Notes: a model not told the origin generated them from the sequence alone. Counted from the first letter of the stretch, positions 35,762 through 64,000 are shown. The stretch is 64,000 nucleotides of DNA from Coriobacteriia bacterium (GCA_030536315.1 JAUNQF010000004.1:14244-78243); one strand, 5' to 3'. Translations and numbers: made by a program.

Positions 35762-38700
35762 TTAGTAATGCGCATAATCTCCATTATCCGAAGATTTACA
35801 CGAGTTATATTTAGCTAAAATTTTTTCTTCAAAGTCGTAAACATTTCTTAGCTCTGGCCCCTGATTAGATTTTATGGTTGGCTTTTTCTTTCTACGAACA
35901 ACAAAGAAAATAACTAAACCTAGAACAACACAGATGCATAAAACAAGAATCAAAATTCAGACCCAGTTATTATTTGCAGGAGTATTGCTAGCCTTATCTA
36001 TTTCATTTAAAGTTGAAAGACCGGTTTCGTAAATTTCTTCCGCATTTCCGGTAATTTTAATTTCAGAATTTCTCTTTAGTGTATCTTTAATCTCTTTTAA
36101 CTTTACTTTTGTAGCATCTCGAGTATTTTCATTATTGATGTCATTCTTAACAGCATCAACATTGACTCATGTATTAATTATTTCAGATTCTAAAGCTCGT
36201 TCTTCTTCGCTTTTCCCAGTATTTACTCTTAAAACAAAAGATTTAGTATCTTGATAATCGTTTTTATTCTGAAGCTTAACTTCATATAATGTGTCACTAT
36301 AATCATATCCTACAGCTTCAACAGATTCAATTCCATATTTAGTATCTTCTTTAAAGTTTAAATTAAACTGTTCCTTTTTAAGACCATGTTTTAAAAACGA
36401 AACAGAAGCGCCATGCTTAGTTTCAGCACCTTTAATAAAATTTAATACATCCAAATTTTTAGTTTTAACTTTATTTTCTTTGTCCTTTACAAAAAGTGAA
36501 ATTCTATTATCTGAATTTGTACAATTTCTCATCAGGCAACATGACAAAGGATCCTGGAAATAATTATCTGATAAATAGTAAACCCAACCTGAACGGGCAC
36601 CCTCATTCCCATTCTTATCAATTGGCGCAACAGAAAACTGATAAATTGGAAGGTCATCAATATCCATCTCCTGTGCTAAGTTCAAAATTGTTTCCTTTGC
36701 TTTTGATGGATAGAAGACAAATTCATTTGCAGTAACAGGCTCACCAACAGGCAAAATTACTCCGTTAATTGAAGTATATACTTGATATTTTACATTCTCA
36801 GCTCCATCAGGCACTTCCCATTTTATCTTGAAAGCTTTATCGTTGTTTGTGTCAGCATAAGCTTTATCAACAATTCATCCAGTTGCCGTATCTTGTTGTT
36901 GAATATCCTTACTTTCTTTAGGTGCCACCCCATTAGTATCTTGTTGAGAATTATTAACATCCGATTGGGTGTCGGTAGGGTTATTCGCAATCTCATTGGT
37001 AACTGTTAAATTGTAACAAGCCATAGTGAGTGGTTGTATAACATTGTACGTTATGTATCCAATAACCGGAGCAAATCTATCTTTTTCATCTGGATTATTT
37101 TTTACTAATGGAATATTAGAATCCCATATTGCATCACCTCATTGATAATTGTATTTGCCATCATATTCCTCATCAATTTTTCCCACATTTCAATATAGGT
37201 TTAAATCCTTAGCATTAGTAGTAGCATCTGTATTATTGTGCAAGCCTGTTATATCTCCATTAAGCGCAAATCTTAACGAACTTTTCTTTTCTTCTGTAGG
37301 CGAAGAGCCAACTGTAAAACCAGCTTTAAAATTAACCCCATGACTAAACCTCTCGGCATCAGTTTCCGAATGGCTAATCTCAGCATTTCTCTTCTTTTTC
37401 TCATCCCCGTATCCAACGGTTTCTAAATCTGCATAAAATCTTTTAAATCCACTAAGATTATTATTGCTAGCGATATCAGCATTTGTGTTTCCTTCGCCAT
37501 TTGGATACATCGCGGGAGAGCCCAAGTTGTCAGAAAGAAAATTTCCATCTAGCTTGGTAAGTAAGTAAGATGCGTCAACATTAGGATCTTTTTTCTTAAG
37601 ATCCGAGTTAAATTCATCAACTAACTTATTGTATTTTGAAATTGAATAAGTATCAATTATTGGAGCGTGTTCAACCCCAATCATTCCTCCATATGGATCT
37701 CATGCACCACTTTCAACATTGTATGTATCGTAATAATATTCCGCTAAAGGAATAAACGAAACCACGACATCATTTTCGCATCCGGTTGAATATGTAGTTG
37801 TTAATTTTACTGTGTCTGTAGTAGTAAAGGACTCTGCCCAATCCATTGAAAGACCAGCAGTTATATTTCATGAATAATATGATCCTGTCTTAAAAGCACC
37901 TAAAGAAAAACCAGAAGATACAGTTGTCCCCGAAGTGTTAGAAATTGCAACACTTTTTCCAAAGGAAATTTCTGTTAAAGGCTTCTCCTGAGCTGAAGAA
38001 TTAACGAGTTTGTCGAAATAAGGGCCAGCCTGTAAAACAACCTCAACAGAAGGATCTGAATAATCATAATCACATTCATTGTATTTTGCTAAAAGACCGT
38101 CTTGATCATTATCGACAGCGCACATTGTCAGTGCCAAAGCTTTACCAGGTCTTGCGTTTTTGTCTTCTCATTCATAAGAATCTTGTTTGGATCTTTCAGT
38201 GCAATAAAACGCATTATTTAAGTCTGAAATTAGTCCGCTTTCAGGATCATGTGAACTATATTTTGTGCCAATAATAACTGTTGATAAAGACACATCATGA
38301 TTATGACTTGCATTCTGCTTACGTTCAATTGTGTATACTATCTGCTCAAAACCTTTATCATTTCCATCAAAATTCCCAACTGCTGTACCACTTCTAACAA
38401 TATAGTTCCTATGCACAAGATCAGCACCAACATACTGATCGTTATCATTTAAGCGACTGTTGTCAAATAACAATATAGGATAAGTATCACTATCATTTCA
38501 TTGATAAATGTCTCCGTCCATGCAGAAATAAACAGTATTGCCTTTCCCGTTCATATGAATGGCTTCCAATGGAGGTGGATTTTGAATGTTGTAGTCAGCT
38601 TCAATTTGATTTTGTCGTAAGACGTTGGTGGCGCCAACTGTATTTGCATAATATTCAGTATTGTTTAACTTATCTACCGTAGAATTAGATTTATTAAAGG

Positions 38701-40018
38701 AATATTTATATGCACCATAAAAGTATCTTGAGTAGTCATCATGAAATTCATTCCTGCTAGTGAGATTTTTAGAAGTTGCATCATATTTGCATTGAAGCTT
38801 AAATCCAAGAAGAACAATACTGTTAGATACTTTAGGCGAATCACATGTTAAGCCATCATCAGTTTTAGCAACAACAACAGTTGGTCTTTTAACAGAAAGA
38901 CAAACATTGTCAGAGTCTGAATCATAAACATACTTACTTTCAACATTGTTTTTGTTAAAAATATTATACGAATCAGTGTTGCCATTCGTATCAGCACCAT
39001 AACTAACAGACATATATGGGATAAAAGCTTTATAGTTATAGCCAGAGCTCGAATCAGGAATATCGCAAGAAGAAATAACGACCAAATCATCGACGGTATC
39101 AGCATTTACATCTCCTACAGCTAAACTGGCAAATATACAACCTTTACCAGTCTCCTTTTTGCTTCCAATACCATCATAAATAGATTTGCTGTTCTTCGTA
39201 TATTCAGGATTTAATAATGGGTGCGACATGTCCTCTATATTTTTTTCACTTATTGATATATTTCCAAATGCATTAGTTACCTGTAACTCTTGAAGATGAA
39301 AATCCTCGTAAGCACCATAAAACGTCACAAGTGTGTCTTTATGATCTTTATCAAAATCTCCTGCTACAATAGATAAATACGGCTCAGCCTCACAAAAATC
39401 AGTTACCGGATTATCTCCATTATTAACCCATGTCATTTTGCCAATCTCAATAGGGTTAGATCAAGTTTTACTTGTAGCATCCATAGCAATAACAACAACA
39501 CTTTTATTATATGTATTTCCATTATATGTACCTTCAAGAACAAAACCAATTACTGCAACATGATCATGCCTTCCTGTACCGTTAGGGTCAAAAGATACAG
39601 CATGGGTATAATCCATATGTAAAACAATGTCGGGAACACTAACTTTCTTTTCCTCAGATCCTGAATTTTTAAAGCTATCAGTTATTTTAGTATTAGTATT
39701 ACTTTCGGTAGAATTTAAAGTGTCATAAATAGAAGTATACGAAGCCTCACCAGCATTTTTTTGCTTTAATAAAAACAATTCGTCATTCTCAAGCATTGTA
39801 AAAGGCGTGCCAACACCAAAGCCATACGGATCATTATCCTTGTTGCTTGTATACCACGACGGTTTATTTTTCTCTTTAAAACTTTCATAAGTGTAAGTTT
39901 CGTCATTTTCAGCAGCAAAAGCTTTTTTTATTGGCGTAAACGAAACCACCATTAAAACAGAAACAATAACAGCAAGACATTTTTTAAATATGTCAGATTT
40001 ATATGTTGATTTATTCAT
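35762..40018 (-). CDS. 1418-aa type-I membrane-anchored surface protein with FG-GAP/integrin-alpha-like repeats
   Basis: Seven track ORFs plus four gaps form one frame, interrupted only by TGA at 39461, 38498, 38168, 37868, 37700, 37190, 37139, 36875, 36167 and 35957. All gaps were hand-translated with no TAA or TAG. AAAGGAG RBS. Signal peptide ...FTPIKKAFA-AEND. Repeats AGDFDKDHKDTLV, AVGDVNADTVDDLVV, AVGNFDGNDKGF and AVDNDQDGLL. FN3-like KAFKIKWEVPDGAENVKYQVY. C-terminal TM helix ILILVLCICVVLGLVIFFVV-RRKKK. Stop is TAA. Confidence 0.8.
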
Positions 40019-40087
40019 GATAGCTCCTTTCAAAGCCTTATAGAAATTATACACCTTTTTTATGTTTGAAAAGAGCCTTAAAAAAAA

Positions 40088-45058: not shown

Positions 45059-45535
45059 TTACTTATGAACTCCACATTCAGAGCAGTAGTAGTAATCTGT
45101 GTAGGGCTGTTCTTCGTAAATCGGTTCATAGTGCCCATATTCTTCGCCGTTATTTACTCCGTCAACAACGAATTTTGAACCAACCTCAACCAAATGCGTA
45201 GTTCGATGTGCCTCTCAAACATGAGTATGAGGCTCATTTCCGTTTGCATCGCGAACTACATAAGCAACATATTCACCCTTTTCATTTAGCTGAAGAACAA
45301 CAATATTACCTTCGCGATCTTCAATTTCTTCACCTAAAACAATTTCGCCTGAACGTTTAATTTCGTCCATCTCATCAGCAGTTATATAACCTTTAAGTGC
45401 ATATTGACAGGCCAAAGCTGTTGCTCGATACTTAAAATAGTAAACACAATAGAGTAAAATGCCAATTACAATCACAAAAATTAGAATTGCCGTTAGCGCA
45501 TAGAGTCATTTATGTTTTTGAAATACACTCTTCAT
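45059..45535 (-). CDS. Hypothetical membrane-anchored protein (158 aa)
   Basis: GGAGG RBS. MKSVFQKHK-W-LYALTAILIFVIVIGILLY (TM helix). TGA at 45506 and 45215. TAA at 45059. No family recognised. Confidence 0.55.
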
Positions 45536-45558
45536 TGTTCCTCCATTATAACAAATTC

Positions 45559-46590
45559 CTACATTATCAAGTAATCAACCTGCCGAAGTCCTCAAGCCTG
45601 ACACGTCTGAAAGCCAAAAGCCTTAAAAACTCCAGGTTGCAAATCTAAACTTCTACTACCTCCGCCCATGCCTCCGCAATCATTAATTTTTGCTAGAACT
45701 GTCATTCCGTTTCAAGAAATTTGAACTGTATGATGAAAGTAAGATCTAAAATTTGGCCAGGCCATAGGAATAGCAACGCCCGTTGACCAATCATCGCAAA
45801 CTTCTCCAGTTGCAGTAGTTCCAGGATTTGGAGTATATGGGTCCGAAGATCCACCATACGCGCTTGCAAGCCCACTGGACCAGCCTGGTGTTGGAGGGTC
45901 TGGAGAAGGGCCTGGTTGTGGTCCCGGAGGTGTTGGCCCAGGCGTTGGAGTGTCTCCGCCGCCGCCTCCTCCTCCGATGTCGGATATCTCTCCTTCGAGT
46001 TCAGCAAGTTCTTCGGGGGTTAACTTAGCGCGAATACCTTGCAAGACAGTTTCAGCTTCGGCTAACTTCTCCGAAGCAGAAGCCAAGCATGCGTTTTGAG
46101 CAGCATTTTGAGAGTTTAAATTTTGAAGCGTGCTGTCAAAAGCATCCTTCTTTTCTTTGTTCTCTTTTGAAACATTTAAAAGATAATTCATTGCAGAATT
46201 TGCATAATCAATGTTTTTGGAAAAGTCATCAAGGCTTGTAGAACATGCAACCATAATAAAAATTGAAAAGATAGTCGAATTTTCGTATTGGTATTTAAGC
46301 AACGAATTTAGCTGAAGCTGAGACTCGGTCATTGCCCTTTGAGCCTCGAAAGCTTTTTGAGTTGTCGCTTCAATCTGGTTATATATTGACTTCGCTTCCG
46401 ACATAATTGCATTGTATTCGCTACGAACGCCGGAAAGATACGACTTCGCTTCGATATAATTGCTAACAGTCGAAGGGTCAGCATTAGCGGTTTTATGATT
46501 TCTGGAAATAAATAAAGAAGACAAAGCAAGCGTGAGAACAACCACGCATGCAATTGCTACTTTCATGCTACGTTTAAGCTTCATTTTCAT
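45559..46590 (-). CDS. Secreted cell-wall protein: PcsB-like coiled coil, Gly/Pro linker and RlpA-like DPBB domain
   Basis: Signal peptide, a long coiled coil, GGGGGGGDTPTPGPTPPGPQPGP, then ASAYGG...GTTATGE...VAIP...ISWNGMTVLAKINDCGGMGGGSRSLDLQPGVFKAFG. TGA at 45712 and 45592. TAG at 45559. Confidence 0.65.
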
Positions 46591-58433: not shown

Positions 58434-58509
58434 GGACCGGTAGCTCAGCTGGCAGAGCAGCGGACTCTTAATCCGAAGGTCCGGGGTTCGAAACCCCGCC
58501 GGTCCACCA
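58434..58509 (+). tRNA. tRNA-Lys (anticodon CUU), CCA encoded; island insertion site
   Basis: GGACCGGTAGCTCAGCTGGCAGAGCAGCGGA-CTCTTAA-TCCGA...GGTTCGAAACC...CCA. Confidence 0.9.
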
Positions 58510-58791: not shown

Positions 58792-59403
58792 AAAAGACTA
58801 TACAACAAAGAGGAGCTAAAAGAAGTCTTATTAAAAATAAAAGATACAGAGTGAGCCCTTCCTGTACTACTAGAATGCGTTTGTGGGTTAAGACATGAGG
58901 AGTTCTGTGGATTAAATAAAAGAGATGTTATGTTTGAAAATAATTGTGCGTATGTTGAAATTACTCAAGCACTCACTGAAGTTGATGGGCGTAAAGTACT
59001 AAAAGAACCAAAAACAGAAACAAGTGCGCGTACAGTAGTCCTTACAGAAGACTTTTTAGATTATTTAATTGAACAATATCCGCGAATAAGAAATAAACGC
59101 ACATTAGATGAGTATGCCTATCCTATTAGCCTAACAAAACGCTGAAGAACATATTGCAGAAACAACGAATTGCCTTATGTCACATTTGGAAATATGAGAT
59201 CAGTATATGCAACACTATGCTCTGAAGCTGGATGTTTAGATAGTCTTGTCTGTAAAACAATGGGTCATACTGGTCAAACAATTAAAGAAAGAAATTATCA
59301 ATCTTCAACATTGAAAGCTCTAAAAGTTAATGCTGAAATACTTGCAGAGTATATTGGTTTTAAATACAACTCCCCTAATGTTATATCTTTAAATGAAATC
59401 TAA
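58792..59403 (+). pseudogene. Tyrosine recombinase (phage-type integrase) remnant, catalytic domain only
   Basis: The frame is open only from the TAA at 58789: ...EELKEVLLKIKDTE-W-ALPVLLECVCGLRHEEFCGL...RSVYATL...MGHTGQTIKERNYQ (R...R...H...Y). Two in-frame TGA at 58852 and 59143. There is no N-terminal core-binding domain and no start codon before 58930. The upstream 280 nt are AT-rich with stops in every frame. Confidence 0.6.
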
Positions 59404-60666: not shown

Positions 60667-62397
60667 TTATTGTTCATACGCCTTAATAAATAGTTCAGGA
60701 AGAGCATCCTTGAATGCCTTGTCAGCAATTTTTTGTTTCTCTTTTGGAACAAGTTTTTTTACATTCTCACTCTGAAGATATCAAGTCTTTAATTGAACAC
60801 CAACACTACCAGCTAATTTATCTTCCTTATAACTCCCATACAGAATTAAGCCATCACATTTAACTAGACCATACAACCATTGCTTTGCATCCTCATCACC
60901 GTTATATGCTTTAGTAATTTGTTCTTGAATTGTGTTTTGATCTAATCTATAAGAAGCATATATCGGATTATTTTCTTTATCAATCATAAGCTGAAATTCC
61001 AATAGTTTCTTTTCTGGTGATTTATTACTATTTAACAATTCTATAGCTGGAGCTGCATCGTGAAAATTAGATAAAAATTCTTTAATGTCTCCAGCAACTC
61101 TACCAATCAATCCCTTTTTTGCCTCATCCCAATTTTCTCCAAAAGACCAGGCAAGGTGCAAAGGTGTTGCAATTAAATCCTCTTCTCAAGGAGCAAAAAA
61201 ACAATCTTCAGGAGAAAAGCCTGCTACTCCTCCCTTAGCGACAACCCAGTATATATCGGGATTTTCCCCACGCAATCACTTTTCTATTTCTTCAAAGCCT
61301 CAACGATGTTCCTTTTCGTAAGTAACCAATCCTTTAATTAAATTTCTTCATCGTTCAGCAGGGATATTATCTTCGTTAACATTTTTGTAATACAATCCAC
61401 GATCACAATTTCTTTGAGCCTGTATATCTGTTGGTTTAGGATTTCTTTTATCGCCCAATAATTTACGATTGGTAAATAGTTCAAAAATAATAGCACCTAA
61501 AGCAAACCAATCTGATTTTGCAGTAATATGATACTCGTATACTTCAGGCGCAGTATACGTTTTTGTTCCAGCAAAATGTTTTGTACGCGAAGTGATATCT
61601 TGTTTATCCCGAGCTATACCAAAATCCGTTAAAACAAGATCCAGTGGTTCAATCGAACGAATAAGTATGTTTGAAGGTTTGATATCTCGATGAGCGATAG
61701 TACCTTTTACTTGATGTATATTATGGATTGCCTTGCTTACCTCAACCAGAAAATCTTTAATAAATTTTTCTTCATACGGACCCTTATTATTATTCGCTCA
61801 TTCTCCTCAAGAAATTGAACCTAGGGGACAATACTCATGAATTTCTCAAGCTCTCTCTCGTTTATTCCCCACACTAAAATCAATAATTTCAACAACATCA
61901 TTCCTGCTGCACTTGTTCTGTATTAAGCTCAATACACTACCATCAGGCTGAATACCTTTGTGATACAATTTGAAAAAATAATTCCTTCCTGTATCGCGTC
62001 GCCTTATAATAAATACATCAGATTCACCACCAGGGTACTCAAGCTCTTCAACAATTTCATAATCACGATTTAAACTAGCAGGCAGATTATCGTAATGCTG
62101 AAAAGGTCTTCAGGCTCTACGAGGGTTATCGTTTTCAATCACGGTAGAAGGATTTTCATTATAAGTTGAATCGTTATAATCGTTATTCTCATCATCTTCC
62201 ACAAATGTTATCTCATTATCTTCGCGAAGTGTATTATTAGTCTCTCTTTCTGTTAAAGACGCATTTCCTGAAACTGAATTCGATTGATTTTCCTCAGATT
62301 CTCTAAATGTTCCATCTTCTCGTAAAGTAAATTGTTCTTCTTGCTCACGAACTGTATTATCAAAATTAGCATTTTCTCTTTCTGTTCTACCGCTCAT
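60667..62397 (-). CDS. Hanks-type Ser/Thr protein kinase (576 aa): TxRE-repeat N-terminal tail and an unknown soluble C-terminal domain
   Basis: One frame with 9 TGA (62110, 61846, 61807, 61798, 61348, 61300, 61276, 61186, 60781), which is why the track shows almost nothing between 61162 and 62109. Motifs GGESDVF, FFKLY, HRDIKPSNIL, DFGIA, TYTAPE and ...HRWGFEEIEKWLRG. AGAGGA RBS. TAA at 60667. Confidence 0.85.
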
Positions 62398-63164: not shown

Positions 63165-63785
63165 TTAGATTCTAACTTCTAACTTAACACGCATACTTGG
63201 CTTATGTCCTAATCAAATATTTATCGGCAATGGGTATGTTTGCCCATTTATTACTTTTGTTTCTCCATCACCAATATAAGTTCCATTAGTTGAGCCATTG
63301 TCATTAATCGTAATAGAACAACTAGAATAATCTATTCTAATATAGCAATGCTCACGAGAAACATTATTACGTTCACCTAAAGCATTTTTAATTTCTGACA
63401 CATCACTTTCCCTGCCAATTAAATAATCTTTTCCGCTTTCTAACCTTAAATCTAATCCATTTGGTAAAACTAAAAACGCTGCATCTATTGAAACATTTTG
63501 AGAAGAAGTACACAACGATTCATTGGGTATTATTTTTCCGCACTGAATGCATTCCTCACCAGGTTGCCCAGGGGCACCACAATTTGTACACCGAGCTTCT
63601 GATGTGCTTAATTCCGAATAGTCACTAGAAGAATCCTCGCAGCAAGAATCCTCTAAAACCTGTTCTTCTTCTATATTTTCTTCAATATTTTCTTCTTTTA
63701 CAGGTTTAAAAGTATTGCAACAATGACTGCAATAATAATTTTCATCAAGAGCTCTTTCGCACTGTGGACAAATTAATTCTGCCAT
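63165..63785 (-). CDS. Double zinc-ribbon plus FHA-domain protein
   Basis: CPQC...CSHC and CTNC...CIQC, then an FHA core YLIGRESDV...VSREHCYIRID...ITINDNGSTNGTYIGD. Reads through TGA at 63213 for 15 more codons to TAA at 63165, just before the PP2C RBS. Confidence 0.85.
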
Positions 63786-64000
63786 GTTTTTCCTCCTAAT
63801 ACAATTCCTTTACTCCTTAACTTTTTATCAATGATATCAAGATCTCCAGAATTTGGCATTCCAGCAAAAGTAATACCTGAAGAATCTAGCTTAAACTGTA
63901 TTGGTACATCATTTTTTGCTAAATACTCATCATAAATATCTTCAAATTGTTTGTCTATTATCACAAGCTCTTGATTATCACTAGAAACCAAACAATTAGT
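63773..64000 (-). CDS. Unknown protein, 3' end only (5' part outside the window); first visible gene of the operon
   Basis: The frame is open to the window edge (...TNCLVSSDNQELVIIDKQFEDIYDEYLAKNDVPIQFKLDSSGITFAGMPNSGDLDIIDKK...TWQN-TAA). Its end overlaps the FHA gene ATG by 13 nt. Confidence 0.5.
   Translation of the reverse strand, partial: TNCLVSSDNQELVIIDKQFEDIYDEYLAKNDVPIQFKLDSSGITFAGMPNSGDLDIIDKKLRSKGIVLGGKTWQN

Follow-up and report, generated by a model that had tools for sequence, protein, structure and literature searches.

A stretch that looks free of open reading frames, within a 64,000-nucleotide window of the Coriobacteriia bacterium genome GCA_030536315.1, very probably holds an intact Hanks-type Ser/Thr kinase gene, whose host reads UGA as tryptophan and which forms part of the cargo of a tRNA-Lys island with a long stay in UGA=Trp hosts. 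The stretch seems empty only because UGA is a tryptophan codon in this organism, an Eggerthellaceae MAG from the gut. The recoding itself is not new: UGA-to-Trp reassignment in the Eggerthellaceae 'Equivita' and 'Gorillivita' clades was published by Parks, Chaumeil, Chuvochina and Hugenholtz (2026, Microb Genom, PMC13462651), and GCA_030536315.1 is listed there as code 4, genus JAUNQF01, in the 'Equivita' clade. Since both the recoding and the kinase family were already known, the masked gene is mostly the correct reading of an ordinary consequence; the additions made here are a tRNA-Lys island adapted to code 4, the standard-code relatives of that island and an analysis of codon shares.

A kinase gene masked by nine in-frame TGA codons

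Translation with table 4 yields a single open frame on the minus strand from 60667 to 62397, 576 residues long and ended by TAA, without any internal TAA, TAG or frameshift, the defects that a preliminary description of this DNA had named beforehand as fatal to its claim of a complete kinase gene. At the local base composition, the probability of 576 codons free of TAA and TAG by chance is about 4e-16, and the sequence AGAGGA lies 6 nt upstream of the ATG. The tryptophan codons of the gene comprise nine TGA and five TGG (TGA 64%, 9/14), in agreement with the earlier count of nine against about five, and the TGA codons correspond to residues 96, 184, 197, 200, 350, 366, 374, 404 and 539. Under table 11 the only minus-strand ORFs of the region are 60781-61161 and 62110-62397, a re-scan again found no minus-strand ORF of at least 60 aa between these two pieces, and translation in the standard code would stop at codon 96, the first TGA. 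The peptide motifs quoted in the preliminary description were all found in the translation, which matches the Pfam Pkinase model (PF00069) strongly, with 105.8 bits against a cut-off of 31.7 (E = 3e-30, residues 124-371), bearing out the claim of a complete 576-aa kinase hidden by nine TGA codons. Neighboring genes are close, with intergenic gaps of 11 nt between the FHA and PP2C genes, 12 nt between the PP2C and kinase genes and 9 nt between the kinase and the membrane protein gene (Table 1). The full-length kinase was missing from a large protein collection, in which the best match was a relative with 73% identity. Annotation of this MAG with table 11 conceals whole genes.

Table 1 Features of the island, with positions counted from the first letter of the window.
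Feature	Position	Strand	Remarks
tRNA-Lys(CTT)	58434..58509	+	3' 49 nt (58461-58509) = attL
Tyrosine-recombinase remnant	58792..59403	+	203-aa stop-to-stop frame, 2 TGA, catalytic domain only
Last operon gene, 414 aa	59413..60657	-	six predicted TM segments, 5 TGA, no family match
Ser/Thr protein kinase CDS, complete	60667..62397	-	ATG start, 576 codons + TAA stop
C-terminal all-alpha domain, residues 385-576	60670..61245	-	model; no family or fold match
Nine in-frame TGA (Trp)	60781..62112 (span)	-	62110-62112, 61846-61848, 61807-61809, 61798-61800, 61348-61350, 61300-61302, 61276-61278, 61186-61188, 60781-60783
Hanks-type kinase domain, residues 104-376	61270..62088	-	Pfam, alignment, AlphaFold model, Foldseek
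Disordered N-terminal tail, residues 1-103	62089..62397	-	six T-x-R-E motifs; alignment, pLDDT <50
PP2C phosphatase gene, 247 aa	62410..63153	-	2 TGA
FHA protein gene, 206 aa	63165..63785	-	Cys-rich (zinc-ribbon-like) N-terminus, 1 TGA
NrdG-like radical-SAM gene, 3' part	63773..64000	-	gene and eight further operon genes run past the window (L084 to ~18701)
attR, identical 49-bp copy	G000:C14:89579-89627		beyond the window; exact repeat of the tRNA-Lys 3' end

UGA is read as tryptophan in island and core genes

Six of the nine TGA residues of the kinase (184, 350, 366, 374, 404 and 539) align with a tryptophan that is invariant in all ten homologues. These ten include the standard-code sequences P0004 (GCA_963661535.1) and P0011 (Adlercreutzia aquisgranensis), whose kinase genes under table 11 contain no TGA and 12 TGG, and the standard-code homologues have 12-13 TGG and no in-frame TGA in the kinase. 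For all island proteins taken together, 131 of the 179 cells aligned to TGA hold Trp; Arg comes next with 7, and Gly occurs in 3. The same holds beyond the island. Reading TGA as sense gives far more long ORFs in the genome (1,089,702 bp, 31 contigs, 39% GC, about 75% complete), and 1666 TGA stand beside 2029 TGG (TGA share 45%) in 832 ORFs, a greedy longest-ORF set covering 95% of the genome that does not come from a trained gene caller. The core gene rpoB also carries in-frame TGA. The AlaRS encoded in this genome shares 61-67% identity with named proteins of Coriobacteriia/Eggerthellaceae.

Beside tRNA-Trp(CCA), the genome encodes a tRNA whose anticodon is UCA. Its gene (G000:C4:4024-4119) is 96 nt long, has a tRNA-Trp-like core and an Rfam tRNA score of 58 bits, and contains an unusual 23-nt insertion in the variable region; its sequence is identical in the congener G001. 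One class-I release-factor gene (RF-1-domain) was found in the ~75% complete genome, and prfB is absent from all 34 code-4 MAGs (PMC13462651). The genome resembles the published Equivita recoding in having TGA on conserved Trp positions and a UCA-anticodon tRNA, and in that only one release-factor gene was found. The present analysis adds the TGA/TGG share of each gene, the long-arm tRNA and the adaptation of the tRNA-Lys island to code 4. A term search of the text of PMC13462651 returned no islands, kinases or long tRNA variable arm, and 'codon usage' for stop codons only.

That TGA might instead stand for glycine (code 25) or selenocysteine can hardly be entertained. Under the standard code, aragorn does label the 96-nt tRNA(UCA) as SeC for its long extra arm, but the core, the anticodon arm and G73 resemble those of the genome's own tRNA-Trp(CCA), the acceptor stem has 7 bp and the general tRNA model matches. 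Moreover, the residues aligned to TGA are Trp, with glycine confined to the three cells mentioned, 1666 in-frame TGA are too many to be selenocysteine, and for the code-4 MAGs no tRNA-SeC was reported and selB was found in only 1 of 34 (PMC13462651).

The TGA load follows base composition

Genome-wide, the TGA share of tryptophan codons climbs from 27% to 67% as GC3 drops (rho -0.37), being 27% at a GC3 of 0.45-0.5, 55% at 0.2-0.25 and 67% below 0.2. The kinase gene, with a GC3 of 0.215 and a TGA share of 64%, conforms to this trend (binomial p 0.3-0.6) and ranks 22nd in TGA density among the 655 ORFs of at least 200 aa in the genome; it is not an outlier, and for a gene of this composition its TGA load is ordinary. 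The preliminary description had assigned it the highest TGA density in the window, which is correct among genes of at least 200 aa but not overall, as a 181-aa ORF at 45062-45604 reaches 16.6 TGA per 1000 codons compared with 15.6 for the kinase. A 1430-aa ORF (35762-40054) contains 10 TGA, an absolute number above that of the kinase. A contrast had also been drawn between the island and rpoC, said to lack TGA over its 1485 codons. The counts hold (0 TGA, 9 TGG), but the contrast is not specific to the island, given that the TGA share falls smoothly with rising GC3 throughout the genome. rpoC (0/9 TGA) and rpoB (1/9) lie under expectation even at their GC3 (together p ~0.003 or less). The nine TGA of the kinase gene would be the product of AT pressure, which after the reassignment turned TGG into its synonym TGA.

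The turnover of these codons was followed in a comparison with the congener, based on 171 reciprocal-best pairs between this genome (G000) and about 280 kb of G001 with a median identity of 81%. The 546 conserved tryptophan sites divide into 127 TGA/TGA, 105 TGA/TGG, 73 TGG/TGA and 241 TGG/TGG. Codons differ between the two congeners at 33% of the Trp sites, at 38% for Lys, 32% for Glu and 26% for Gln, and phi is 0.32 for Trp and 0.24-0.33 for the other three. The TGA share of the conserved Trp sites is 0.37-0.42 in both species. Since codon turnover is as fast as for Lys, Glu and Gln and yet the TGA share is steady, the comparison points to a stable TGG preference in core genes rather than to a lag since reassignment; a time lag as the cause of the low core TGA share is disfavored by the fast turnover and by the share being stable in both species.

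An island at tRNA-Lys

The kinase operon is located in a region bounded by an exact 49-bp repeat, one copy of which is the 3' end of the tRNA-Lys gene (Table 1). The two copies are separated by 16,826 bp (16,875 bp including attR), so that the island measures 16.9 kb. Its GC content is 32.4% compared with 41.7% for the rest of contig C14, and GC stays low from a point shortly after tRNA-Lys almost to the contig end. The congeneric genome G001 is homologous across glyA and the tRNA, but not beyond a point just past the tRNA 3' end, the G001 contig itself ending 489 nt further on. A tyrosine-recombinase remnant starts 283 nt from attL; it corresponds to residues 140-315 of the Tn1549 Int, scores 27.9 bits with PF00589 (cut-off 27.1) and is missing the N-terminal ~130 aa. 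With the catalytic domain alone present, no functional integrase was found on the island, and no excisionase or transfer genes were seen there. No orthologue of the kinase was found in 40 relatives, including the 87% complete G001, and only 3 of 300 sampled family genomes yielded one, all of them without in-frame stops.

These features recall tRNA-integrated islands with tyrosine integrases of the Tn916/Tn1549-Int-like kind, namely the repeat of the tRNA 3' half, the integrase next to attL, the deviant GC and the patchy distribution. They differ from such islands in that the integrase here lacks its N-terminal DNA-binding part and all genes need UGA=Trp decoding. Judged by the repeats and the distribution, the island was probably mobile. 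The preliminary description had suggested a recoded mobile element or phage, of which the mobile element is the best reading in view of the 49-bp att repeats, whereas no phage genes were found.

Codon usage within the island, the nearest relative of the kinase and its phylogeny bear on how long the island has been in recoded hosts. The per-gene TGA/TGG check, core against island, which had been proposed earlier, gave 44 TGA and 16 TGG in island genes (0.73) compared with 45% genome-wide. In the island the TGA share thus equals the share of A-ending Lys, Glu and Gln codons (0.74), while in the rest of the genome the two values are 0.45 and 0.67. Elsewhere in the genome, four further runs of low-GC3 genes behave as the island does. 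The nearest kinase, P0002, is 73% identical, is encoded on a contig with 33% GC and also needs TGA=Trp, with 10 TGA. Seven TGA sites are common to both genes, but this was rejected as proof of ancestral conversion, being about what chance gives for two sequences at ~70% TGA. The two code-4 kinases, the only two copies found, form a clade with 100/100 support in a maximum-likelihood tree, nested among standard-code sequences, with a stem of 0.94 substitutions per site and tips of 0.16-0.19; both code-4 rows were flagged for compositional bias, so the stem length may be inflated.

The alignment of TGA with Trp, the TGA-coded sister copy, the code-4 clade and the TGA in the integrase remnant together exclude a recent import from a standard-code donor, as the preliminary description had concluded, and its inference that the island genes had long evolved under the recoded code is supported by the same evidence. 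Taken with the exact att repeats, the data favor an element of old divergence from its standard-code relatives that evolved while in UGA=Trp hosts and reached this genome only once its lineage and that of G001 had separated.

Alternative histories of the island

A quite different account would have the cluster inherited vertically from a standard-code Eggerthellaceae ancestor, its island-like look being due to weakly constrained, weakly expressed genes that drifted to low GC and high TGA. Homologous clusters do exist in standard-code Eggerthellaceae, e.g. Adlercreutzia, the integrase is a remnant only, and other low-GC3 gene runs have an equally high TGA share. This account is nonetheless improbable, since the 49-bp repeat is still exact although conserved Trp, Lys, Glu and Gln codons have diverged at 26-38% of sites between the congeners, congener synteny ends at the tRNA, and the kinase was not found in the 87% complete congener and was found in just 3 of 300 family genomes. 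Very improbable is also a phage or element with its own recoding, unlike that of the host and marked by a high TGA density. The TGA share of the island (73%) does exceed that of GC3-matched native genes (56%; GC3 <=0.25, Fisher p 0.009), but the host core likewise uses TGA for Trp, in 45% of its Trp codons, and TGA means tryptophan in island and core alike; the four other low-GC3 runs are similar, and PHROGs matches of island proteins are limited to the integrase, a nuclease, weak OmpA-domain hits and one marginal baseplate-wedge hit (E 0.0055).

Least tenable of these histories is a recent import from a standard-code donor in which the TGA codons are disabling stops and the kinase is a pseudogene. 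Table 11 splits the gene into pieces, and the closest full-length relatives outside the code-4 pair are standard-code. Against this, the interruptions are all TGA with no TAA or TAG, six of them fall on invariant Trp, the aligned cells of the island as a whole are mostly Trp (131/179), core genes such as rpoB have in-frame TGA too, and the genome is a published code-4 MAG (PMC13462651). A long stay of the island in UGA=Trp hosts remains the reading that we prefer.

The kinase has a conserved catalytic domain and a C-terminal domain of no assigned family

The AlphaFold model of the kinase is three-part, with a disordered tail (residues 1-103), a confidently predicted kinase fold and a confidently predicted helical C-terminal domain. 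Over residues 104-376 the AF2 model has the bilobal kinase fold, with pLDDT mostly 70-96 and a low-confidence activation loop (261-276). A Foldseek search with it gave E values of ~1e-12 and TM scores of ~0.7-0.8 when normalized to DAPK3, CaMKII and PknB, the values for DAPK3 and other CAMK-type kinases being about 0.8, and a profile of 11 homologues matches the kinase domains of Rad53, ULK1, CDPK and PknB in the PDB. Invariant in the 11 aligned sequences are K143, H236-R237-D238, N243, D258-F259-G260, A283-P284-E285 and R365. The alignment stretch expected to hold the alpha-C Glu that pairs with the beta3 Lys has no conserved Glu in the 11 sequences, and this residue was not placed. The protein is a member of the Hanks-type family and, judging from its sequence, a probable phosphotransfer enzyme. 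It has no TM-like segment and no PASTA match, the features of PknB-type receptor kinases.

The T-x-R-E motif, present six times in the tail of this kinase, occurs 3-11 times in the close homologues P0002-P0008. The C-terminal domain modeled alone reaches a pLDDT of 92 and has no neighbor in the PDB by Foldseek (best E 1.5). A profile of this domain found 183 representative clusters among 1.84 billion proteins, and in 8 of 10 sampled proteins a Pkinase domain stands N-terminal to it, usually with the C-terminal domain following directly. A scan of genome contigs with active-site peptides of the kinase returned only generic kinases from many phyla, and a metagenome-contig scan with the kinase gave one unrelated match at 23%.

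A kinase, FHA and PP2C operon with an AAA+ and a radical-SAM protein

The 13 cargo genes are tightly packed and all on the minus strand. The operon begins with a 4-TM protein, followed by an OmpA-like peptidoglycan-binding protein, a pair of unknown proteins, a membrane-anchored pseudokinase (8 TGA, lacking HRD and DFG) and another two unknown proteins, and ends with a ClpB-D2-like AAA+ protein (688 aa), the NrdG-like radical-SAM protein, the FHA protein, the PP2C phosphatase, the kinase and the 6-TM protein. For twelve of these genes, homologues are arranged in the same order on standard-code contigs with 40-60% GC (loci L081, L083, L092, L095 and L096), and the standard-code homologues of the 12-gene operon contain no in-frame TGA. 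The FHA/PP2C/kinase trio, adjacent and co-oriented, recurs in six homologous loci, and homologues of the last gene follow the kinase in L081, L092, L093, L095 and L099.

Searches with PADLOC, PHROGs, NCBIfam and Pfam yielded single domains and no named defense or secretion system for the operon. Compared by PADLOC with MADS Mad6, Mokosh MkoA, PD-T4-6 and BREX PglW, the kinase gave kinase-domain matches only (for mad6, positions 44-310 of 659), and no partner genes of these systems were present. A literature search on a cassette of kinase, FHA, PP2C, AAA+ and radical-SAM genes returned one general paper and no description.

The kinase and its FHA and PP2C partners are encoded in one operon, in which the kinase may act as the writer, the FHA protein as the reader and the PP2C phosphatase as the eraser of a phospho-threonine switch. 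The kinase would phosphorylate threonines, the TxRE repeats of its own tail being the prime candidate sites, the FHA protein could dock on the phosphorylated TxRE, and PP2C would remove the marks. Such a switch might control the AAA+, radical-SAM and envelope proteins encoded upstream, with a role in defense, stress response or envelope function.

With its kinase, PP2C and FHA genes side by side, the operon resembles modules of the PknB/PstP/FhaA type and of the PpkA/PppA/Fha1 type (T6SS threonine phosphorylation), a likeness furthered by a ClpB/ClpV-like AAA+ protein and an OmpA-like peptidoglycan-binding protein in the same operon. In contrast to the kinases of those modules, the present one is without a TM segment, PASTA or vWA domain, and carries instead the TxRE repeats and an alpha domain of no assigned family. 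The host here is a Gram-positive actinobacterium. Unlike in the T6SS pathway, Pfam and NCBIfam detect no T6SS structural families, the AAA+ and OmpA-like proteins matching the ClpV/TssH and TssL models below cut-off.

Implications for mobile DNA in a recoded lineage

Since the first TGA of the kinase falls at codon 96, island proteins would be truncated in a standard-code host. It is conceivable, though we hold it to be rather doubtful, that the island is a code-locked mobile element, a copy of a so far undescribed kinase-gated unfoldase/radical-SAM conflict system that has long moved only among UGA=Trp Eggerthellaceae. Linked to this reading, and equally tentative as the two are considered jointly, is selection against UGA in expressed genes, with TGA making up ~40% of core Trp codons despite fast turnover; such selection may have to do with the long-arm tRNA-Trp(UCA), which is unusual and perfectly conserved.

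The operon adds a code-4 copy to a kinase/FHA/PP2C/AAA+/radical-SAM cassette that recurs in six loci, and it indicates that in a recoded actinobacterial lineage, described only recently, accessory DNA is fully adapted to the altered code. Evidence of this kind is what it takes to ask whether the mobile elements of a lineage become isolated when its code changes. If the element is indeed code-locked, the recoded lineage would possess a mobile gene pool of its own, out of reach of its standard-code relatives.

Features with in-frame TGA codons, and the tRNA with anticodon UCA (G000, source genome; C, contigs of G000; L084 and L091, loci of G000).
Feature	Size	Coordinates	Strand	Location
Degenerate kinase-like gene	484 aa	L084:12694-14148 = G000:C14:82694-84148	-	outside window, kinase operon
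Staphylococcal-nuclease-like gene	161 aa	L084:18894-19379 = G000:C14:88894-89379	+	island, attR end
Truncated tyrosine integrase	 	window 58792-59403	+	adjoins tRNA-Lys attL
ORF	1430 aa	window 35762-40054	-	second low-GC stretch
Giant ORF	6511 codons	G000 C1 (2172-21704)	 	 
Giant ORF	5400 codons	G000 C13 (5325-21524)	 	 
Giant ORF	3978 codons	G000 C9 (79372-91305)	 	 
Giant ORF	3801 codons	G000 C21 (35932-47334)	 	 
tRNA, anticodon UCA	96 nt	G000:C4:4024-4119	-	outside window (L091)

Genes with in-frame TGA in the island and elsewhere

The operon of the 576-aa kinase encodes a second, kinase-like protein, in which both the HRD and the DFG motif are absent and three transmembrane segments lie at the C-terminal end. 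Its gene contains 8 TGA codons versus 1 TGG, and its TGA density, 16.5 per 1000 codons, is slightly higher than that of the 576-aa kinase gene. The staphylococcal-nuclease-like gene, encoded on the strand opposite to the operon, carries four TGA codons, and its product matched PADLOC C3a212 ('SNc+LTD', 2e-11) as well as a PHROGs nuclease family. Two further TGA codons occur in the tyrosine integrase remnant, of which only the catalytic domain is left.

TGA codons were also observed in large ORFs outside the island. The 1430-aa ORF, situated in a stretch of 34% GC with a GC3 of 0.24, contains ten, and its sole Pfam match was a weak one to Orf78, under the cut-off. Moreover, the genome, of approximately 1.1 Mb, harbours four giant ORFs with 17-31 in-frame TGA codons each.

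The UCA tRNA and Trp codon choice

The tRNA with anticodon UCA was labelled SeC by aragorn under the standard code. Its core is tRNA-Trp-like (anticodon arm CCGGUCUUCAAAACCGG, G73), and its variable region has a 23-nt insertion able to fold as a short hairpin; a term search of the text of Parks et al. 2026 (PMC13462651) on the recoded 'Equivita' clade returned no mention of a variable arm. Between G000 and the same-genus genome G001 this tRNA is 100% identical (96/96 nt), while GlyA identity is only 77%.

In a comparison of the whole of G000 with its congener G001, TGA accounted for approximately 40% of the Trp codons in core genes of both, even though the codon differs at one third of the conserved Trp sites. 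Lys AAG is likewise preferred in core genes, a preference not found in the island. The steady TGA share despite turnover of Trp codons, together with the core preference for AAG, suggests that TGG and AAG are under selection in native genes.
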